Positions 12,262 to 22,239 of a DNA stretch of 53,949 bases are shown here, piece after piece. Made by a program: the position numbers and the translations under genes. The notes below the pieces were generated by a model. That model searched no databases and had not been told where the DNA came from. It was given only the letters and a program-made list of their open reading frames with translations. The stretch is from an uncultured Gammaproteobacteria bacterium (GTDB lineage: Bacteria; Patescibacteriota; Patescibacteriia; UBA9934; GWF2-40-263), in NCBI GenBank assembly GCA_964355525.1, contig CAYHDY010000001.1:1-53949 (forward strand), written 5' to 3'. How positions within the stretch are numbered: position 1 is the stretch's first letter; each line of letters starts with the position of its first letter.

Positions 12262-15200
12262 ATGAGTTACAATCATCAAGAAATTGAAAAGAAATGGCAG
12301 GCTCGATGGGAAGCCGACCAACACGGGCGTGTCGTCGAAACTGATTCGAACGAAAATGCCTTGTATTACCTCATCATGTTTCCGTATCCGTCCGGATCCG
12401 GTCTGCATGTAGGCCACGTGGAATCGCAAGCCGCGATTGATATTTTGGCACGCATGGAGCGTATGCGCGGAAAAAATGTGTTGTGTCCGATCGGATACGA
12501 TGCGTTTGGTTTGCCTGCGGAGAATTACGCGATTAAGACGGGTGTGCATCCTTCGGTCACAACGAAACAAGCGATTGAGAATTTTCACAAACAGATGCAA
12601 TCCCTCGGCCTCTCGTTCGATTGGTCACGCGAAATTTCTACGGCGGATCCGGAATACTACAAATGGACACAATGGTTGTTTCTCTTGTTTTATAAAAACG
12701 GTTTGGCATACAGAAAAAAATCTCCCGTGAACTGGTGTGACGGTTGTCATACCGTTCTCGCAAACGAACAAGTCGTCGCCGGCGCCTGCGAACGTTGCGG
12801 CACCATTGTGATCCAAAAAGATTTGGAACAATGGTTTTTCAATATCACAAAATACGCGGATCGTTTACTCGCAGGTCTCGACACAATCGATTGGCCGGAG
12901 AAGATTAAGTCGATGCAGCGGAATTGGATTGGCAAATCGGTTGGAGCGGAAGTCATCTTTCAACTCGCTGATGCGTCATCCCGAGCGAAGTCCGACGAAG
13001 TCGAGGGATCTTCGATTCGCATGGAAGTTGTATTCGCATCGAACAATAAAGCGAAGAAGGCGCGTATGCAGAAATTGGTTGATGCCGCTGGACTCTCGAT
13101 TCAACTGAAGACGCCCGAGGAAATCGGTATTCTTGATTTCGATGTTGTAGAGGATGGTTTGACACTCACGGAGAATTCGGAAAAGAAAGCGCGAGCGCTT
13201 TCGCATCTCACGTCACTGCCGATTCTTGCAGATGATTCCGGATTTTTTATTGAGAACAGTAAATTGGATCCGGTGAAGGTAAAACGAAATGCTCTCGACG
13301 GCGTTGACGAAAAAGAATTTTCAACGGAAGAGATCGGAAACAAGATGCTCACATATTATCAACGCATCGCCACAGATCATGGCGGTCGTGTGGATGCGGA
13401 ATGGCGAAGTTCTTTGTGTTTGATGTCGTCCGCGAAGATATTGAAACAAGAAGAAGCAATCAGACCGACGATTCTGACGAACGAACCGCACGGCATCATG
13501 GATCCGTTTATGCCGCTTCGTCCATTGTATATTTCGAAAGATACAAATAAATACGTTCTCGATCAGACGGATGAAGAAGAATTGATCGAGTTAAAACCGA
13601 TCATGGACGCACTCACACGTTTGTTCCGTCCATCGATTCGTGTTTTTACGACGCGCCCCGACACACTCTTCGGTGCAACGTATCTTGTTCTCGCACCTGA
13701 ACATCAACTTGTTGATTCAATCGTGACCGTTGAACATCGCGCAGAAGTCGAGGTGTATCGCGTCGCTGCGTCGAAGAAATCCGCGCTTGAGCGAACGGAA
13801 TTGCAGAAAGAAAAGACCGGTGTGTTTACGGGTGCGTATGCAATCAATCCTGTGAACGGTGAAGCGATTCCTGTTTGGATCGCAGATTATGTCATCACGA
13901 CATACGGAACCGGAGCGATCATGGCCGTCCCAGCACACGATGAACGAGATTTTGAATTCGCAAAAAAATATCAGTTGCCGACGAAGATTGTTGTCGCATC
14001 AAAAAGTGGGGAAGAGATCGAAGGTTTTTTTGAAGAGGGAGTCGCTGTCCATTCCGAATTTCTTAGTGGACTTTCGACAAGCGGAGCAAAACAAAAAATG
14101 ATTCAGTGGCTCGAGGAGAATCATGTCGGAAATGCGAAGACGACATTTCGTTTGCGCGATTGGCTCGTTTCACGACAACGTTACTGGGGAGCGCCGATTC
14201 CAATTATTTGGTGTGAGGAACATGGGGCACAGGCCGTCGAAGAATCACAACTTCCTGTCGAACTTCCGACCGATGTCGACTTCAAACCGACCGGCGAATC
14301 GCCACTTGTCGATTCAAAAACATTTCACGATGTGAAATGTCCGAAGTGTGGCAAAGATGCGCGTCGCGAGTCTGACACGATGGATACGTTCGTCGACTCG
14401 TCGTGGTACTACTTGCGCTATACAGATCCGCACAACGCGAAGGCGTTCGCGGATAAATCGAAAATCGATTATTGGTGTCCGGTGGATTTGTATCTCGGCG
14501 GCGCGGAACACGCGGTCATGCATTTGTTGTACGCACGCTTTTTCGCATACGCACTTCACGATCTCGGCTATCTGAATTTCTCCGCCAGAGGCGGATCCGC
14601 CTCTGGCGGAGAAGAGCCATTCTTAAAATTGAAAAATCAGGGACTCATCCTCGGACCCGACGGAGACAAGATGTCGAAGTCAAAAGGGAACGTCGTGAAT
14701 CCGGATGAAATCGTTTCCGAGTACGGGGCGGATTCGATTCGTCTCTATGAAATGTTCATGGGGCCGCTTGAAGATGCAAAACCATGGGACACAAAAGGAG
14801 TCGTCGGCGTTCGTCGTTTTCTCGATAAGGTTTGGAAATTGAAAGAAAAAGTCGCCGCCTCTGCGTCATCCCGAGCGCAGCGAAGCGAAGCCGAGGGATC
14901 TTCGAGCGAGGGGGAGATCCTTCGGGTACCTCAGGATGACGCATATGTGAACCGTCTCCTTCACAAAACCATCAAGAAAGTCACGAAGGATCTTGAAGAT
15001 CTGAAATTCAACACGGCGATCTCACAACTCATGATCGCGACGAATGAATTTTCGAGTGTGACATCGATCGAAGAGCAATCACTCGAATCATTGTTGAAAT
15101 TGCTCGCACCGTTCGCGCCGCACATTGCGGAAGAACTCTGGGGACAACTTGGACACACAACATCGATCTTCAAAGAATCATGGCCGACGTTTGATCCGAC

Positions 15201-15402
15201 ACTCATTGTCGACGACGTCATTGAAATGGGTGTGCAAGTGAATGGAAAAGTTCGCGCGACGATTCACATCGCACCGAATGCGGATGAAGCGTCGGCAAAA
15301 GAACTCGCGTTGTCTGAACCGAATGTTTTGAAATGGATTGAAGGAAAAGACATTGTAAAAATTATTTACGTTCCGGGGAAAATTTTTAACATTGTTGTAT
15401 GA
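12262..15402 (+). CDS. leuS: Leucine--tRNA ligase carrying an in-frame Ham1/RdgB-like insertion and three palindromic-element insertions
   Basis: HIGH (GLHVGHVES), Zn module CDGC...CERCG, QRNWIGKS, CP1 editing motifs TTRPDTLFGATY and GTGAIMAVPAHDERD, and KMSKS. At 1046 aa it is much longer than typical bacterial LeuRS. Confidence 0.9.
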   Translation: MSYNHQEIEKKWQARWEADQHGRVVETDSNENALYYLIMFPYPSGSGLHVGHVESQAAIDILARMERMRGKNVLCPIGYDAFGLPAENYAIKTGVHPSVTTKQAIENFHKQMQSLGLSFDWSREISTADPEYYKWTQWLFLLFYKNGLAYRKKSPVNWCDGCHTVLANEQVVAGACERCGTIVIQKDLEQWFFNITKYADRLLAGLDTIDWPEKIKSMQRNWIGKSVGAEVIFQLADASSRAKSDEVEGSSIRMEVVFASNNKAKKARMQKLVDAAGLSIQLKTPEEIGILDFDVVEDGLTLTENSEKKARALSHLTSLPILADDSGFFIENSKLDPVKVKRNALDGVDEKEFSTEEIGNKMLTYYQRIATDHGGRVDAEWRSSLCLMSSAKILKQEEAIRPTILTNEPHGIMDPFMPLRPLYISKDTNKYVLDQTDEEELIELKPIMDALTRLFRPSIRVFTTRPDTLFGATYLVLAPEHQLVDSIVTVEHRAEVEVYRVAASKKSALERTELQKEKTGVFTGAYAINPVNGEAIPVWIADYVITTYGTGAIMAVPAHDERDFEFAKKYQLPTKIVVASKSGEEIEGFFEEGVAVHSEFLSGLSTSGAKQKMIQWLEENHVGNAKTTFRLRDWLVSRQRYWGAPIPIIWCEEHGAQAVEESQLPVELPTDVDFKPTGESPLVDSKTFHDVKCPKCGKDARRESDTMDTFVDSSWYYLRYTDPHNAKAFADKSKIDYWCPVDLYLGGAEHAVMHLLYARFFAYALHDLGYLNFSARGGSASGGEEPFLKLKNQGLILGPDGDKMSKSKGNVVNPDEIVSEYGADSIRLYEMFMGPLEDAKPWDTKGVVGVRRFLDKVWKLKEKVAASASSRAQRSEAEGSSSEGEILRVPQDDAYVNRLLHKTIKKVTKDLEDLKFNTAISQLMIATNEFSSVTSIEEQSLESLLKLLAPFAPHIAEELWGQLGHTTSIFKESWPTFDPTLIVDDVIEMGVQVNGKVRATIHIAPNADEASAKELALSEPNVLKWIEGKDIVKIIYVPGKIFNIVV
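12972..13014. repeat. Palindromic element family A, left-half copy inside leuS (translated as ASSRAKSDEVEGSS)
   Basis: tgcgtcatcccgagcgaag...gagggatcttcg matches the left ends of the copies at 14862 and 28016. Confidence 0.6.
14581..14610. repeat. Palindromic element family B: 30-nt perfect palindrome tccgccagaggcggatccgcctctggcgga inside leuS
   Basis: Perfect self-complementarity. Identical copy at 39646-39675. Exactly 10 codons (SARGGSASGG). Confidence 0.9.
14862..14943. repeat. Palindromic element family A, full copy inside leuS
   Basis: Termini tgcgtcatcccgag / ctcaggatgacgca are inverted repeats (one mismatch). Internal gagggatcttcg / gagatccttcg arms. Translated as SASSRAQRSEAEGSSSEGEILRVPQDDA. 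Confidence 0.8.
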
Positions 15403-18226: not shown

Positions 18227-18685
18227 ATGGCTGACGTACAACGCACCCTCGTTCTTCTGAAACCGGACGCCCTTCAGCGCGATTTACTCGGAGAGATCCT
18301 TACACGCTTTGAACGCAAAGGTCTTAAGATCATCGGACTCAAATTGTTTCAACTCTCAGACGAGCAACTCGATGTTCATTACGCCCACCTCACAGAAAAA
18401 TCTTTCTTCGGCGACTTGAAAAAATTCATGAAGCACACACCAGTCGTTGGAATCGTGCTTGAAGGTATGGAAGCGGTCGCGGAAGTTCGCAAGATGATTG
18501 GATCGACAAATCCATTGCAAGCAGATGCAGGAACGGTTCGTGCAGATTTTTCGATGAATGTTTCTTCGAACTTGGTGCACGCATCTGATTCACTCGAGAA
18601 TGCAGCTGCGGAAGTGAAACGATTTTTCAAAGACGATGAATTGTTCTCCTACGCAAAAATCACAGATCAATATATTTTCGGCTAA
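18227..18685 (+). CDS. ndk: Nucleoside-diphosphate kinase
   Basis: RTLVLLKPDA, GSTNPLQADAGTVRADF and NLVHASDS (active-site His). Confidence 0.95.
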   Translation: MADVQRTLVLLKPDALQRDLLGEILTRFERKGLKIIGLKLFQLSDEQLDVHYAHLTEKSFFGDLKKFMKHTPVVGIVLEGMEAVAEVRKMIGSTNPLQADAGTVRADFSMNVSSNLVHASDSLENAAAEVKRFFKDDELFSYAKITDQYIFG

Positions 18686-18693
18686 CGATTTGA

Positions 18694-18720
18694 AACAGCC
18701 TCCGAACGAGGCTGTTTTTG
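18694..18720 (+). terminator. Intrinsic terminator of ndk
   Basis: aacagcctc-cgaac-gaggctgtt followed by tttg ttttt. Confidence 0.65.
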
Positions 18721-18732
18721 TTTTTCGAGGAA

Positions 18733-18769
18733 CCCCCTCCTTCTTTGAGGAGGGAGCAGGGGGTGGTCG
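18733..18769. repeat. Palindromic element family C', intergenic copy
   Basis: ccccctcctt-cttt-gaggaggg-agcaggg-ggtggtcg. Confidence 0.7.
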
Positions 18770-18910
18770 TTTTGTAGCCGCTTCGATGGAAAAGATGAGA
18801 TACATCGGTAACACTCCAAGATTCGGAAAAGAAATCCGGTGCGAGGGTTGCAAGTTAATCGAACACATCTTAAGGACGTTTGTGCAACGAAGCACATCGT
18901 CCTTTTTTCT

Positions 18911-18938
18911 TTGACAAACTCGTTCAATCTGCTACTCT
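18911..18938 (+). promoter_or_regulatory. Promoter TTGACA-16-TACTCT for the RSH-like gene
   Basis: TTGACA at 18911-18916 and TACTCT at 18933-18938. It lies inside the longer 18880 ORF, which argues for the ATG at 18997. Confidence 0.45.
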
Positions 18939-18996
18939 GCACATTCCATTCAGTAGGAATGGATATCCGAAACCAACAGAACACGCAGGAGGCGCG

Positions 18997-20142
18997 ATGA
19001 TTCCTTGGAAGATGTTTCTTGAGTGGCAGCATGATTGGCTTGAGATTGATCCGAAAGCCATCGAACGGCGAAGAACGTTTCTCAAGCAAGTTCCGTTTCT
19101 TCGACAAGTGCAGTTCAAACATGCACTTGATACAGTTCGTTTCGGTCGGCGAGCGCTTGTGAAAGATTATGCGTATGCATACGCGGCGCAACTCGCGCTT
19201 GATTCATCGGTCGCAACCACTCCGCATCGTAAGCGATTGCTTGATCTTGCCGAAACACACGAAGAAGGAGAGTTGCCGGATCGACAGCGGTGGTTCGAAT
19301 GTTTGAGTCTGTTTGATCAGGCCATCGTCATTGCGTACATCGAAGCGTATGATCCGGTGGAGACGATCAGCGCGGACATTAATCAGATGATTACATTTCT
19401 CAAAGCTCGATTGTTCGTCGGGGGATTCCGGCGAATCGAGGCGTATTCCTATCACGATCCGAAAAACGGGTATGTCGTGACGAAAGAGAATGTGTCCATT
19501 GATCGTACGCTCCATCGATTGGGACTCGACGAACGTGTAACGCCGTTCACGTGTCGACAAATCGCTGGCGATGGATTTACGTACATGGATCATCGCATCA
19601 AAGATCCGTTCGAAGTGTTTTTGAAGGTTTGTCGTCAGGTGGAAGAAGATCTACTGGAAGATCCTTTTATCATTTTCGATCGCTGCGGTCTCGTGTTTGC
19701 TGCCGAATCGTTCGATGAGATGTATCATTTTGCGAATCGTCTCACGGATGCGCTGGTGGCAGACGGAGCAGAGGTCATCTTACCGCTTCGATGGAATAAA
19801 ACGGATTCAACCATGAATCCCACGAATCGTTCCTCCTCTCCTAATTACAAGGCGGCGAAAACGTTGATCATGTGGCGCGGACGTGCGTTTGAATTCCAAT
19901 TCGTCACGATCGCGGATTTTCTGAACGGATCTCTTTCGCTCACGGATGCGAATCACGAATTGTATAAACTGCGTCAAGCGGAAACGTATTCGTTGCCGCT
20001 CCTGTGGCCGGATACTCTGTACGGGATCCGTTGGAGTGACCCGGCAATCAGTGATCGATTGCGTGTGTGCAAAGAATCACAACTCGGGTGGCGCGTGCAG
20101 CGGCAAGAAGTGAAGACGTCTGTGTTTGACGCGAATGGTTGA
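18997..20142 (+). CDS. Divergent RelA/SpoT-like (small-alarmone-synthetase fold) nucleotidyltransferase with an unknown N-terminal half
   Basis: By-eye match to SAS motifs: HRIKDPFEVFLKV (cf. HRVKSPESIKEKM), IFDRCGLVF (cf. DIAGIRV), NYKAAKTLIMW...AFEFQFVTIADFLN...NHELYK (cf. GYRSYH...VEIQIRT...FWA..H..YK). GCAGGAGG RBS. Confidence 0.45.
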   Translation: MIPWKMFLEWQHDWLEIDPKAIERRRTFLKQVPFLRQVQFKHALDTVRFGRRALVKDYAYAYAAQLALDSSVATTPHRKRLLDLAETHEEGELPDRQRWFECLSLFDQAIVIAYIEAYDPVETISADINQMITFLKARLFVGGFRRIEAYSYHDPKNGYVVTKENVSIDRTLHRLGLDERVTPFTCRQIAGDGFTYMDHRIKDPFEVFLKVCRQVEEDLLEDPFIIFDRCGLVFAAESFDEMYHFANRLTDALVADGAEVILPLRWNKTDSTMNPTNRSSSPNYKAAKTLIMWRGRAFEFQFVTIADFLNGSLSLTDANHELYKLRQAETYSLPLLWPDTLYGIRWSDPAISDRLRVCKESQLGWRVQRQEVKTSVFDANG

Positions 20143-20167
20143 CAGGAGACCATTCATCCATTATATT
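20139..20167 (+). promoter_or_regulatory. Promoter TTGACA-17-TATATT
   Basis: TTGACA at 20139-20144 overlaps the upstream stop codon. TATATT at 20162-20167. Confidence 0.45.
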
Positions 20168-20244
20168 CACCGTTGCGTTTCCGACCGTGTCGGATTCGGT
20201 CCTGTCAGATTTTCTGACGCATCTTCCACAAAGAGGCTTACAAC

Positions 20245-20730
20245 ATGCCCACCGTTCCAATGTTAATGAAGTTTTACGAGGGGTTCCATGCTCTCAGGCC
20301 CAAGGGGAAAAAGCTTTTTCTCGCGGGTCATGTCACGTTCTCCGAAGCGCAGCAGTTCTCCGCGTTTTCGAAGCCGGAGAAAAAGCGCGCGAAGACGCAG
20401 CTCCATCAGATGCATCTCCGCCGGCACAGTCCGATCTTGCGCGAACATGAGAATATCGGCGAGCCCGTGGAATCGATCTACGCGTTCGGCGAAGAACTCG
20501 ACGCCATGCCTGTGCACATCTCGCATCAGGTCCTCGAGGGGTCGATGACGCTCATCCAGGCTCGGTTCGCGAAGCAGCGTCAGTTCGGCAAGAAGCCGGT
20601 GATGGAACTCTGTCGCGCGAATGTGCCGAAGGTTCCCAACCGCGATCGCATGCGCCCCGCGTCCTCTGAAGTGTCGGTGCACGCGGTGAATGTCCGTGTC
20701 CGTCCCAGTCTCCCATCCCCGCGTCGCTGA
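20245..20730 (+). CDS. Hypothetical basic protein (161 aa)
   Basis: It has its own promoter (20139-20167) and terminator (20741-20770). The antisense 252-aa ORF is R/H-rich shadow. Confidence 0.55.
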   Translation: MPTVPMLMKFYEGFHALRPKGKKLFLAGHVTFSEAQQFSAFSKPEKKRAKTQLHQMHLRRHSPILREHENIGEPVESIYAFGEELDAMPVHISHQVLEGSMTLIQARFAKQRQFGKKPVMELCRANVPKVPNRDRMRPASSEVSVHAVNVRVRPSLPSPRR

Positions 20731-20740
20731 CGCGTCTCTG

Positions 20741-20770
20741 ACCTCTTTATCCACAAGAGGTTTTTTATTT
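20741..20770 (+). terminator. Intrinsic terminator
   Basis: acctctt-tatccac-aagaggt followed by tttttatt. Confidence 0.6.
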
Positions 20771-20776
20771 GATCTT

Positions 20777-20814
20777 TGAAATGATTTGACAATCATTTCA
20801 AGACCCGATACTCT
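20777..20814 (+). promoter_or_regulatory. Promoter TTGACA-17-TACTCT with a 24-nt palindromic operator over the -35 element
   Basis: TGAAATGATT-TGAC-AATCATTTCA (20777-20800) has perfect 10-bp arms. TTGACA at 20786-20791 and TACTCT at 20809-20814. Confidence 0.5.
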
Positions 20815-20824
20815 CAATAAAGAT

Positions 20825-20932
20825 ATGCAAACATTTTCTGCCACCACGATTACAAGTACATATACACAGATTTGGCTCTGTGTTGTTTTGTTTATGTTGC
20901 TTGCGCTCTCGGTGGTTTTTACGTGTTCATGA
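20825..20932 (+). CDS. Candidate leaderless micro-ORF, 35-aa hydrophobic peptide MQTFSATTITSTYTQIWLCVVLFMLLALSVVFTCS
   Basis: ATG lies 10 nt after the -10 element, with no SD. A single predicted TM segment. Terminator at 20962-20991. It could equally be a non-coding sRNA. Confidence 0.35.
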   Translation: MQTFSATTITSTYTQIWLCVVLFMLLALSVVFTCS

Positions 20933-20961
20933 TTGAACATTCTTTGAAAAAAGATTTTGTA

Positions 20962-20991
20962 AACCACCCTGAATTTCACGGGTGGTTTTTT
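20962..20991 (+). terminator. Intrinsic terminator of the micro-gene
   Basis: ccaccc-tgaatttcac-gggtgg followed by tttttt. Confidence 0.6.
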
Positions 20992-21004
20992 GTGAAGCTG
21001 TTTT

Positions 21005-21037
21005 TTCATGATTCGAAACACAAGATCGAATCATGAA
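21005..21037. promoter_or_regulatory. 12-bp perfect inverted repeat ttcatgattcga-N9-tcgaatcatgaa
   Basis: Seen directly in the sequence. It lies about 60 nt upstream of the ATG at 21097. It may be an operator or an RNA hairpin. Confidence 0.35.
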
Positions 21038-21096
21038 TCACTGCTTCACGACGACGTTTTCAGACGTTTGACGCAAGCCTTAACAAGGAGAATGCC

Positions 21097-22239
21097 ATGC
21101 CCTTTTCCGTTATCGCACGCACCGATCTATCTCTGCACAATCTTCATGCGATGTATCGTTCTGGCGGATCGGTTATGAAAACGCCGCATGTCGGCAACAT
21201 CTATCCCTGTAATTTGGGTGTCGCCCAGGTCGGAATCCCGATGGTATTCTATGATCGTACGTTTGGAAGTCGCGATCGCAATTTTCATCCGCACGGGGTG
21301 ATTCGCGGCGGGAAGTTTGAAGTGCTTTCTGAAGATCATTTGCTCACGACGCATGCAACGTCACAGCAAATGTCTTCTCTTGCGCCGGAATGGTTTTCTG
21401 TCGGCGCTTCGATGAAGCATGGACATATGCGTGCATTGCGCGCAGCGATTCCGGATATGGAAGGTGACCTGTACACGGATATTCTGCTCAAACAGGCAAA
21501 TGATTTGCTTCCGATGCTCGAAATCGCGTTTCGTGCGATGCCGTCTTTGTGGGAACGTGCGGTGAGTGAAGATGGGATCGTGGAATCTGTCTCGTTTGAT
21601 ACGTGGGATACACTTCTCAAGACCGGTATTTTTGGAGTGACGCATCCGAATGCGGGAGTGCTCATTCCGAACACGCTCAACATTCTCCTTCTTACCATTC
21701 TGGATGCGAAGGAGAAGGGGATTGTGGAAGCGTATCATTTGTCAGGCCCTGACATGATCACGTACATCAATCGTCTCGAGAAAGATCTACACTTTTTGTA
21801 TGACACGATTCGTTTGGCATTGTCTGATTGGCGGTTGCCGGAAACGCTTTCGTTGCACATCGTGCCGGTTGCGGACATGCGTTTTGCTGTGGTGAAGACT
21901 CGACAGAATGCACTCGATACGCTCGTGGACGCCTATCTTGCCTACACGAACAACAATCGCTTGCACGGTGAACGGATGCGAAGCGCGTCTGCGACCGATC
22001 AAGCGCGTGTAAAGTCGGAAGTCGTGCTTTTGCGACGGGCGGAGCGCGAACATCTCATCCGTGCCGTGCACGAATGCCCGGACGTGCTTTACAGCATCTA
22101 TGATCGCAACGCGCCATCGCAATATGATGTGCTCGATGCGGGCGGGTTGTATGTACATCCATGGGCCATTCACGCTCAGATGAGTGAACTCATGGCGGCG
22201 ATGCGTCAATTTGAACGCTTCGCAACCGTTTCTTTGTGA
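21097..22239 (+). CDS. Hypothetical protein (380 aa), orphan
   Basis: AAGGAG RBS 7 nt before the ATG. Balanced composition. No motif recognised. Confidence 0.6.
   Translation: MPFSVIARTDLSLHNLHAMYRSGGSVMKTPHVGNIYPCNLGVAQVGIPMVFYDRTFGSRDRNFHPHGVIRGGKFEVLSEDHLLTTHATSQQMSSLAPEWFSVGASMKHGHMRALRAAIPDMEGDLYTDILLKQANDLLPMLEIAFRAMPSLWERAVSEDGIVESVSFDTWDTLLKTGIFGVTHPNAGVLIPNTLNILLLTILDAKEKGIVEAYHLSGPDMITYINRLEKDLHFLYDTIRLALSDWRLPETLSLHIVPVADMRFAVVKTRQNALDTLVDAYLAYTNNNRLHGERMRSASATDQARVKSEVVLLRRAEREHLIRAVHECPDVLYSIYDRNAPSQYDVLDAGGLYVHPWAIHAQMSELMAAMRQFERFATVSL

Follow-up and report, generated by a model that had tools for sequence, protein, structure and literature searches.

A putative pyrophosphokinase of the RSH superfamily with an altered acceptor site in Uhrbacteria and other Patescibacteria

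RelA/SpoT-homolog (RSH) enzymes, the bacterial alarmone (ppGpp) synthetases among them, hold a central place in the signalling of stress and growth rate in bacteria. In a 53,949-nt stretch of DNA from an uncultured member of the Patescibacteria (hereafter the window, meaning the whole stretch that was analysed), we have examined a 381-aa protein whose gene lies between ndk and cell-wall genes, as an initial annotation had placed it. We hold with great confidence that this protein (hereafter the target) is a homolog of the RSH-superfamily synthetases with a constrained active site, and it is best read as a putative housekeeping pyrophosphokinase, still active, in which the acceptor site has been altered. 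The initial annotation, made from the sequence alone, had described the gene as an orphan. This description did not survive the search for relatives, which returned at least 269 clusters of family members (clustered at 50% identity), specific to Candidatus Uhrbacteria and related Patescibacteria. Judged by its sequence, the family is a very divergent and previously undescribed relative of the RSH enzymes; literature searches brought up neither a description of it nor a clear statement on the RSH content of Uhrbacteria.

Gene model and homology to RSH synthetases

The target ORF is real and intact and has the coordinates given in the initial annotation, and all the peptides quoted there were found in its translation. 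The earliest in-frame start codon is a TTG at position 18880; we placed the start at the ATG at 18997, which has an AGGAGG just upstream and agrees with the N-termini of all homologs. An AF2 model of the protein reached a pLDDT of 89.7 and a pTM of 0.85. The coordinates of the gene, of its motifs and of the neighbouring features are collected in Table 1.

Table 1. Features of the target gene and its surroundings (positions in the window; aa, residues of the target protein)
Feature	Position	Strand	Remarks
ndk (nucleoside diphosphate kinase)	18227..18685	+	Pfam NDK, E 1.4e-49; universally conserved upstream neighbour
Intrinsic terminator of ndk	18692..18718	+	11-bp stem and T-run
Promoter-like element of target	18911..18938	+	-35 TTGACA 18911-18916, 16-nt spacer, -10-like TACTCT 18933-18938
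Shine-Dalgarno AGGAGG of target	18987..18992	+	Relatives carry GGAGG-type sites before the start
RSH-like protein CDS (target)	18997..20142	+	381 aa; identical product called in NCBI/ENA/Logan
N-terminal all-helical domain, aa 1-138	18997..19410	+	Family-specific; predicted secondary structure
Extra β-hairpin region, aa 139-189, before the canonical core	19411..19563	+	Strands E140-153 and E178-189; contains R187
RSH synthetase-homologous core, aa 184-324	19546..19968	+	hhalign, Foldseek, family HMM
ATP-triphosphate motif R200-x-K202-x7-K210-x2-R213	19594..19635	+	Equivalents RelP R78, K80, K88, R91
D228-R-C-G231-L-V233	19678..19695	+	Mg2+ Asp; Val replaces the adenine-stacking Arg (RelP R112)
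Remodelled acceptor ("G-loop") N277-x2-S280-S281-x2-Y284-K285-x2-K288	19825..19860	+	Family conservation
E299-F-Q301-F-V303-T304	19891..19908	+	Catalytic/Mg2+ Glu and Gln; QIRT Arg replaced
N319-H320-E-L-Y323-K324	19951..19968	+	Equivalent of RelP H190 ribose contact; H..YK motif
Near-consensus promoter of orf161	20139..20167	+	TTGACA-17-TATATT, 11/12; overlaps target stop codon
orf161, fast-evolving small protein	20245..20730	+	Basic, pI 10.5; own terminator 20740-20762
orf380, variable insert travelling with M19 dipeptidase	21097..22239	+	Not in target unit; L004/L005 and L014

Structural and profile searches concurred in assigning the C-terminal half of the protein to the RSH/small-alarmone-synthetase fold, as had been proposed. 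When the model was compared with the PDB by Foldseek, the top ~25 matches were all RSH synthetases (probability ~1.0, E values from 1e-3 to 1e-1), and the comparison matched Rel, RelP, RelQ, RelA, SpoT, CapRel and FaRel2. Alignment of the family profile with a RelA profile by hhalign gave a probability of 96.9% (E 2e-10), and column-shuffled and reversed decoys did not exceed 1.3%, so that the pairing with the RelA motifs lies far beyond chance. A broad family HMM run against PDB sequences retrieved B. subtilis Rel (E 5.7e-6), RelSeq (5.5e-5), M. tuberculosis Rel (1.6e-4) and RelQ (7e-3), RSH proteins making up 13 of its 19 matches, and a RelA-only HMM gave weak matches to family members (~2e-4 in a 170-sequence database). 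Pfam PF04607 matched 5 of the 83 distant family members with a best E value of 3.8e-5; the scores of 19-20 bits lie under the 27-bit gathering threshold. Of the two kinds of search that the initial annotation had recommended, the fold comparison thus recovered RSH proteins, and the Pfam search came back empty for the target protein itself, which matched neither PF04607 at E ≤ 1 nor the NCBIfam RelA_SpoT model.

A chance likeness of motifs in an unrelated protein, of nucleotidyltransferase fold or otherwise, would be in keeping with the outcome of the less sensitive searches: phmmer with the single target sequence gave no RSH match in the PDB, and a narrow profile of 21 sequences (A1) returned only noise from the PDB, missed its RSH chains and reached a probability of 0.2% when aligned by hhalign with a single RelA sequence. 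The homology is seen only when a 160-sequence family profile is set against an RSH profile. However, four independent methods point to RSH and to nothing else, with clean decoys, and we give chance very little credence and count it as already refuted.

The part of the protein without RSH homology comprises ~185 aa and consists of the helical domain (residues 1-138) and the extra β-hairpin (140-189). An N-terminal half of 230 aa had been reported as lacking any recognisable relative; the lack of relatives stands, and the extent has to be reduced. The helical domain is retained in distant family members, and R187 in the hairpin is conserved in 88% of the family. No Pfam or NCBIfam model matched the N-terminal domain, Pfam HD_4 included, and a model of residues 1-145 (pLDDT 82) found in the PDB a best Foldseek match with an E value of 0.16 and a probability of 0.15, and no HD fold. 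Foldseek had aligned 333 columns with the RelSeq NTD, which raised the idea that the helical half might be a degenerate HD hydrolase. This possibility was ruled out, given that the N-terminal-only model did not retrieve an HD fold and that the profile of the N-terminal half had no match to the RSH profile. The helical domain may have a regulatory or sensing role.

Active-site residues and the acceptor pocket

In the profile-profile alignment, the peptides of the target pair with RelA motifs in the way that the initial annotation had mapped them onto RSH, with some ambiguity of register in the acceptor loop: HRIK..K falls opposite GRPK..K, FDRCGLV opposite FDVRAVR, FEFQFVT opposite VEIQIRT and NHELYK opposite AHWKYK. 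The two Arg-to-Val substitutions that it had pointed out were also recovered, V233 being aligned with the Arg of the G-I-R motif and V303 with the Arg of QIRT. The roles of the ATP-triphosphate, Mg2+, ribose and adenine-stacking residues were taken from RelP (PMC5794853). Results showed that, among 159 family sequences, K202 and D228 are conserved in 100%, E299 in 99%, Y323 in 98%, K210 in 96%, R200 in 94%, H320 in 93% and Q301 in 75%, and that most members carry R or K at position 213 and G or A at position 231. The position of the G-I-R Arg (233) varies, with R or K in ~45% of the relatives, so that its loss is specific to the subclade of the target and not to the whole family. At the position of the QIRT Arg, no Arg was found in any of the 159 members.

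These data bear on the proposal that the protein is a pseudo-enzyme, that is, an inactive protein that only binds nucleotide and acts as a sensor or scaffold. The two canonical arginines missing from the target, the Phe that replaces the G-loop Tyr equivalent in ~40% of the family and the lack of a Pfam-level match could all be read in this sense. However, the Mg2+ carboxylates (100% and 99%) and the triphosphate-binding Arg and Lys residues (94-100%) have been kept among sequences that are otherwise ~20% identical, a degree of conservation typical of catalysis and not of binding alone, and the variation at position 233 indicates that the family tolerates the loss of this Arg while the rest of the site stays conserved. 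Because the catalytic residues are conserved over 159 relatives, we consider a dead enzyme quite unlikely.

On the acceptor side the site has been rebuilt. In place of the canonical K-x-N-G-Y-x-S-x-H, the family carries the pattern N-x2-S-S-x2-[YF]-[KR]-x2-K, in which N277 (92%), S280 (87%), the aromatic residue Y/F284 (~82%) and K288 (~74%) are conserved. The register between both patterns is ambiguous by at least one residue: hhalign sets the G-loop Tyr of RelA, the residue that stacks on the base of the acceptor in canonical enzymes, against N283 or S279, whereas the conserved aromatic residue is Y/F284. Since the G-loop is replaced and no family member retains the QIRT Arg, the acceptor would probably not be held as GDP or GTP is in the canonical enzymes, and of the two options raised in the initial annotation, a pseudo-enzyme or a different acceptor, we favour the latter. 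V233, which replaces the second of two adenine-stacking arginines, the absent QIRT Arg and the Y/F of the G-loop could also each point to another donor, another chemistry or a weakly active enzyme.

Genomic context and the downstream genes

The spacer between ndk and the target consists of a terminator, a promoter and a Shine-Dalgarno sequence, an arrangement conserved among relatives, most of which show the hairpin and T-run layout. The promoter of the target was read from the sequence and lies under the 9/12 cut-off of the promoter scan. A TTGACA right after the ndk terminator recurs at loci L003, L007, L008, L009, L012, L013, L014, L018 and others, and this conserved terminator-TTGACA-Shine-Dalgarno layout bears out the earlier claim that the gene has its own promoter. 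Rfam scans of the spacers gave no match at the gathering threshold and a single noise match by E value, with no riboswitch or known RNA among them. The gene order LeuRS-UGDH-ComEC-ndk-X was found in ~18 loci and persists down to ~20% target identity; ndk immediately precedes the target in ~18 loci and also in L027, at ~20% target identity. The target forms a transcription unit by itself, inherited vertically in a fixed slot after ndk, with a conserved, predicted σ70-type promoter of its own. Such a housekeeping slot and vertical inheritance argue for a physiological role, in growth or nucleotide-pool signalling, and not for a toxin or a defence function. Note that adjacency to ndk does not speak specifically for a nucleotide-pool function, because synteny extends over the whole block and most genomes have a terminator between the two genes; for the same reasons, functional coupling with ndk was down-weighted.

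The initial annotation had also grouped the target with the genes that follow it (18997-22239) as a possible toxin-antitoxin or defence module, and had suggested that conservation of the neighbourhood be compared in relatives. A conserved block was indeed found, but it is the housekeeping block described above and does not include the proposed partners. Homologs of orf161 are limited to the clade of the target (the window, L001/2 and L007-L012), and the gene is absent from L003-5, L013-L022 and L027, where murI or murA follows the target directly. A search of 5.8 billion proteins with orf161 returned only itself, a local iterative search added copies in L007-L012 and nowhere else, and Pfam, PADLOC and PHROG gave no match. 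This gene is possibly a lineage-specific accessory and not an obligate partner. As for orf380, its occurrence is restricted to L004/L005 (two paralogs) and L014, where M19 is always its neighbour, and it had no family or PDB match.

A toxSAS-type toxin with orf161 as its antitoxin would agree with the RSH fold shared with FaRel2 and CapRel, with the retention of the small downstream gene in the window's own clade (L007-L012) and with the faster evolution of the target compared to its neighbours (38-66% identity versus 68-94% for NDK). However, toxSAS are recognised through bicistronic operons that are conserved and whose genes often overlap (PMC7229694), and orf161 has a near-consensus promoter and a terminator of its own and is missing from most of the family. 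Moreover, even relatives with ~20% identity keep the target in a single fixed chromosomal slot, a vertical pattern that is neither patchy nor mobile, its catalytic half is acidic by bulk pI, no relatives of it were found in 2.9 million viral contigs, and PADLOC and PHROG scans gave no matches. We therefore reject the idea of a module whose members are conserved together, and regard a toxSAS-type toxin at this locus as very unlikely.

Proposed activity and comparison with known systems

We propose that the target protein would bind ATP-Mg2+ and move the β,γ-pyrophosphate to the 3′-OH of an acceptor ribose. Strong purifying selection has kept the residues that serve this purpose in RelP, RelQ and Rel: R200, K202, K210 and R/K213 would bind the triphosphate of ATP, D228 and E299, together with Q301, the catalytic Mg2+, and H320 the ribose of the donor. 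A free nucleotide is favoured over tRNA as the acceptor, which would give an alarmone-like (pp)pNpp product; this preference is based on the acidic catalytic half, on the lack of a co-conserved antitoxin and on the fusion to a NUDIX hydrolase found in 2 of the 83 distant members (P0116 and P0150). The pairing of a synthetase with a NUDIX nucleotide hydrolase would echo bifunctional Rel. An HD_3/YfbR-like neighbour of another distant member, P0090, was considered as an alarmone hydrolase and set aside, since the enzymes known to hydrolyse (p)ppApp/(p)ppGpp are HD enzymes of the SAH type. The full statement, catalytic activity on a free-nucleotide acceptor included, has in our estimation an even chance of being correct.

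Alternatively, the protein could be a pyrophosphokinase of RNA or tRNA 3′-ends with a housekeeping regulatory role, performing toxSAS chemistry outside a toxin-antitoxin arrangement. A conserved catalytic core next to a rebuilt acceptor loop would suit such an enzyme, a surface that binds macromolecules could be made up of the β-hairpin and the helical domain, and tRNA-modifying and nucleotide-making SAS have no clear sequence signature that separates them (bioRxiv 10.1101/2021.04.30.441581). On the other hand, the target is acidic, with a pI of 6.0 overall and 5.6 in the catalytic half (bulk pI being a rough guide to whether a surface binds tRNA), whereas toxSAS have a deep, highly basic CCA groove (PMC11559606). 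Besides, a small nucleotide as the product agrees better with the NUDIX fusions, and a core gene for an uncontrolled tRNA-inactivating enzyme would be difficult to keep if no antidote came with it. An RNA acceptor thus seems improbable to us, and a free nucleotide is the acceptor that we prefer.

The RSH census, which was built by HMM detection, counts 30 SAS, 11 SAH and 13 long-RSH subfamilies (PMC7229694). The CPR-restricted family of the target lies under the Pfam RelA_SpoT threshold and would enlarge the sequence space covered by the superfamily. It would also provide a natural experiment on the dispensability of the "invariant" arginines and a concrete handle on the growth regulation of genome-reduced, episymbiotic Patescibacteria. 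Its significance would be lower if the enzyme simply makes (p)ppGpp. A more speculative extension, which we find rather unlikely, is that Uhrbacteria and related ultra-small Patescibacteria have in this family their resident, and possibly sole, synthetase of the alarmone type. It would use the rebuilt acceptor pocket to make a non-canonical pyrophosphorylated nucleotide messenger, under the control of the structurally novel N-terminal domain as a sensor, and NUDIX enzymes, fused to it in some lineages, would be the matching hydrolase. In that case the CPR bacteria would have a parallel branch of stringent-response-like signalling that has so far gone unseen.

Among known systems, the target shares its α/β fold with the SYNTH domain of long RSH enzymes (B. 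subtilis Rel 8ACU/6YXA, RelSeq 1VJ7, S. aureus Rel 7OIW, RelA 5IQR), which are also its best sequence-profile matches and have in common with it R-x-K...K, D-x-x-G, E-x-Q-x-x-T and H-x-x-Y-K. In contrast to long RSH, it has neither an HD hydrolase domain, its helical domain having no HD-like fold match, nor C-terminal TGS/ACT domains, since its chain stops ~40 aa past the synthetase core and Pfam gave no match. It also differs from them in the arginines, the QIRT Arg being absent from the family and the G-I-R Arg from the target, in the rebuilt G-loop and in the β-hairpin with R187.

Like RelP and RelQ (6EWZ, 6FGX, 5DED), with target-normalised Foldseek TM scores of 0.38-0.47, it is a stand-alone synthetase without a hydrolase, and the equivalents of RelP R78, K80, K88, R91, D107, E174 and H190 are conserved in its family. 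Unlike these enzymes, it is ~170 aa longer, carries the novel N-terminal helical domain, has Val at the position of the adenine-stacking R112 of RelP and does not conserve the G-loop context around Tyr151. Finally, toxSAS (FaRel2 8PU4, CapRel 7ZTB, PhRel2) and the (p)ppApp-making Tas1/Apk resemble the target in having a divergent RSH fold, with Foldseek scores weaker (E 0.08-0.6) than those to Rel or RelP. In contrast to toxSAS, the target has no conserved antitoxin or immunity gene and no mobile, phage or secretion-system context, is inherited vertically in a core slot and is acidic, not basic, as far as bulk pI indicates. Nevertheless, toxSAS and Tas1/Apk provide the precedent for the same chemistry with an altered acceptor.

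Homology of the C-terminal half to RSH synthetases

Searches with the single sequence of the 381-aa RSH-like protein (RSH, RelA/SpoT homolog) returned no match to Pfam RelA_SpoT at E ≤ 1, to NCBIfam or to PDB. Thus, profile and fold comparisons were used to test the RSH relationship proposed in the initial annotation. With a 21-sequence alignment as input, AlphaFold2 gave a confident model (pLDDT 89.7, pTM 0.85). When it was compared with PDB by Foldseek, the top ~25 matches were exclusively RSH synthetases, including S. aureus Rel, RelP, RelQ, RelSeq, RelA, SpoT and an exported Streptomyces small alarmone synthetase (SAS), with probabilities of ~1.0, E-values of 1e-3 to 1e-1 and target-normalised TM-scores up to 0.47; CapRel and FaRel2 came lower in the list. 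Alignment with hhalign of a 162-sequence family profile (residues 130-365) to a 78-sequence RelA synthetase profile gave 96.9% probability (E 2e-10, 123 columns), while decoys made by reversal or column shuffling, and a query with the N-terminal half, gave ≤1.3%; we regard a chance resemblance as excluded. A broad HMM of 83 diverse members, run against PDB sequences, matched RSH proteins in 13 of 19 cases, among them B. subtilis Rel (5.7e-6), RelSeq (5.5e-5), M. tuberculosis Rel (1.6e-4), RelA and RelQ. In addition, five of the 83 distant members individually matched PF04607 (best 3.8e-5) at 19-20 bits, under the 27-bit gathering score, and the family lies under the Pfam RelA_SpoT threshold. 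These four independent lines therefore bear out the RSH synthetase fold, and the C-terminal half is very probably an RSH-superfamily synthetase homolog with an intact, strongly constrained donor/Mg2+ site.

Active site and N-terminal domain

hhalign paired H199-R200-I-K202...K210 with G-R-P-K...K of RSH, F-D228-R-C-G231-L-V233 with F-D-V-R-A-V-R, F-E299-F-Q301-F-V303-T304 with V-E-I-Q-I-R-T, and N319-H320-E-L-Y323-K324 with A-H-W-K-Y-K. Because this alignment places V233 and V303 opposite RSH arginines, both arginine substitutions reported initially are real. Arg at position 303 occurred in none of 159 family members; position 233 was R or K in about 45%, and loss of Arg there is, judging from these sequences, a subclade feature, not a family-wide one.

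Residues of S. aureus RelP (PMC5794853), their counterparts and family conservation (159 sequences)
RelP	Role in RelP	RSH-like protein	Conservation
R78	stacks on ATP adenine	R200	94%
R112	stacks on ATP adenine	V233	
K80	binds phosphate	K202	100%
S84	binds phosphate	E206	
K88	binds phosphate	K210	96%
R91	binds phosphate	R213	
D107	holds Mg2+	D228	100%
E174	holds Mg2+	E299	99%
H190	contacts ribose	H320	93%

Y323 was conserved in 98% of the sequences. From the substituted arginines, the initial annotation had considered an inactive pseudo-enzyme. The conservation pattern of the donor and Mg2+ residues, with K202, D228 and E299 practically invariant, stands against this reading, which we disfavour as unlikely.

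On the acceptor side, where Y151 of RelP is the G-loop Tyr stacking on the acceptor (PMC5794853), the family loop was rebuilt as N277-x2-S280-S281-x2-[YF]284-[KR]285-x2-K288. Against K-x-N-G-Y-x-S-x-H the register is ambiguous, as either N283 or S279 faces the RelA Tyr in hhalign, and the earlier equation of NYKA.K with GYRS.H is a plausible proposal. Further family-specific conserved residues were R187 (88%), in an extra beta-hairpin preceding the canonical first strand, P338 and W346.

Residues 1-138 of the model are all-helical and 140-189 add beta-strands, with RSH homology beginning at about residue 184 in hhalign. Since a Foldseek match to a RelSeq N-terminal fragment spanned 333 columns, a degenerate HD domain was considered; it was rejected, as the N-terminal-only model (pLDDT 82) matched no HD fold and Foldseek returned nothing significant for it (best E 0.16, probability 0.15). 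The domain is kept in the most distant family members; it is family-specific and presumably regulatory.

Distribution and genomic context

The ORF is intact. Its product from the ATG is identical to the NCBI, ENA and Logan calls, its N-terminus lines up with those of all relatives (M-I/V-x-W), and every peptide quoted initially was found in it. A word-seeded search gave 22 full-length relatives (36-67% identity, about 375 aa), all of them unnamed and lacking Pfam domains. An exhaustive profile search then brought the family to 269 clusters (50% identity; 141 at E ≤ 1e-10, 58 at E ≤ 1e-30), including 400-740-aa forms matching mainly the C-terminal two thirds. The protein is thus unannotated yet not the orphan it was taken for. 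A genome-collection scan placed the family in Candidatus Uhrbacteria and other Patescibacteria (CPR) MAGs. TPA MAG records L007, L010, L013, L015-L018 and L021 are titled 'uncultured Gammaproteobacteria bacterium'; they show the Uhrbacteria-type order LeuRS-UGDH-ComEC-ndk-X (X, the RSH-like gene), with 60-90% identity of the housekeeping proteins, and these labels are probably wrong.

Coordinates of features in the window and in loci of relatives
Feature	Position (strand)	Remark
LeuRS	12262-15402 (+)	1046 aa
ndk-RSH-like gene spacer	18686-18996	311 nt
ndk terminator	18692-18718	
Second GC-rich hairpin	about 18727-18768	
First in-frame start	18880	TTG
TTGACA	18911-18916	
AGGAGG	18987-18992	5′ of ATG 18997
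RSH-like gene	18997-20142 (+)	381 aa
orf161	20245-20730	pI 10.5; own 11/12 promoter and terminator
Stretch 5′ of orf380	20763-21096	
Hydrophobic peptide ORF	20786-20932	48 aa
Hydrophobic peptide ORF	20872-21036	54 aa
RcsR1 match	20913-20991	noise-level, E 0.29
orf380	21097-22239	380 aa, uncharacterised
orf380 paralogs, L004/L005	9433-10575 (+), 12874-14094 (-)	one genome
Insertion ORF, L010	4961-5881	306 aa
P0150 gene, L024	6001-8220	811-kb scaffold, away from ndk
HD_3/YfbR-like gene, L030	2096-2671 (-)	191 aa

By tblastn of the window neighbours against the 22 loci, the order LeuRS-UGDH-ComEC-ndk-RSH-like gene was found in essentially every locus with enough flank, and also around a distant member (P0085) only ~20% identical. 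The RSH-like protein evolves faster than its neighbours (38-66% identity versus 68-94% for NDK). In most genomes the spacer after ndk measures about 100-110 nt and follows a fixed layout, namely the ndk intrinsic terminator (hairpin and T-run), an adjoining TTGACA, a -10-like box, SD and start; L004 is the only genome with a gap of 11 nt. Therefore, the gene forms a transcription unit of its own, and it adjoins ndk as part of a stable core block rather than of an operon. The promoter assigned to it initially is supported by the TTGACA and -10-like element 3′ of the ndk terminator, and known RNA families gave no match at the locus. These data show a vertically inherited core gene.

The fixed layout was noted for L003, L007-L009, L012-L014, L016-L018 and L020, with TTGACA inside the terminator hairpin in L013, L014 and L018. 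In two Uhrbacteria genomes (L010, L011), ndk and the RSH-like gene are separated by a 1.3-kb insertion; it encodes a predicted membrane protein, whose gene has a TTGACA promoter of its own. The window LeuRS is about 250 aa longer than its relatives and contains, after the N-terminal catalytic part and ahead of the editing domain, a Ham1/ITPase-like domain (PF01725, aa 256-390, E 1.1e-10, 42 bits versus a 22.5 threshold), unusual as a non-canonical-NTP pyrophosphatase domain within an aminoacyl-tRNA synthetase; in L003, L004 and L008 the insert is absent and the flanking segments are contiguous.

The 3′ side varies among loci, murI or murA being directly next outside carriers of orf161 or orf380. 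Homologs of orf161 are confined to the clade of the window (L007-L012, 29-46% identity), and a large protein database returned only itself. Relatives of orf380, which has no Pfam or PDB match, were found only in L004/L005 and L014, always adjoining an M19 dipeptidase; this gene may be part of a cell-wall/dipeptide module rather than a companion of the RSH-like gene. Where present, it also lies beside murI. Between the orf161 terminator and orf380, in a stretch that no independent locus covers, are the 'tiny hydrophobic peptide' ORFs; the sole RNA-family match there was RcsR1, at noise level. Viral contigs held no relatives of the RSH-like protein, and PADLOC and PHROG gave no match for it, orf161 or orf380. 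The toxin-antitoxin or defence module suggested by the initial annotation hence fails on co-conservation, mobility and library searches, and is very improbable: of the neighbourhood, the 5′ block is conserved and the proposed partners orf161 and orf380 are not.

Proposed activity and comparison with known RSH enzymes

In two distant members of about 738 aa (P0116, P0150), the RSH-like domain (about aa 184-422) is joined to a NUDIX hydrolase at the C-terminus (aa ~604-722, E 1.3e-10). The P0150 gene is flanked by photolyase and pyruvate kinase genes, and the gene of P0090, a distant 467-aa member, adjoins an opposite-strand HD-domain phosphohydrolase gene. The window and the loci retrieved from relatives encode no canonical RSH; among CPR lineages, (p)ppGpp synthesis is reported for at least some (Saccharibacteria; PMC6031116).

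The protein would be an active ATP-dependent pyrophosphokinase binding its acceptor otherwise than canonical RSH enzymes bind GDP/GTP. A housekeeping tRNA/RNA pyrophosphokinase is the alternative; the CCA groove of tRNA-modifying toxSAS (toxin SAS) is deep and highly basic (PMC11559606), whereas this protein is acidic by bulk pI (6.0 overall, 5.6 for the catalytic half), and we consider that role rather unlikely. A free nucleotide would be the likelier acceptor, giving an alarmone-like product. To the reading of an active RSH-type pyrophosphokinase with a free-nucleotide acceptor, taken as a whole, we assign even chances.

The published RSH census is HMM-based (PMC7229694), and no description of this family was found in the literature searched; it would be of value to those who study RSH enzymes or CPR bacteria. 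The protein shares the RSH superfamily and probably its chemistry, and our results show that it combines a reshaped acceptor side with a new N-terminal domain. Compared with known RSH enzymes, the family differs in acceptor loop and domain architecture, the protein lacks two 'invariant' arginines, one of them lost family-wide, and the family is limited to CPR bacteria.
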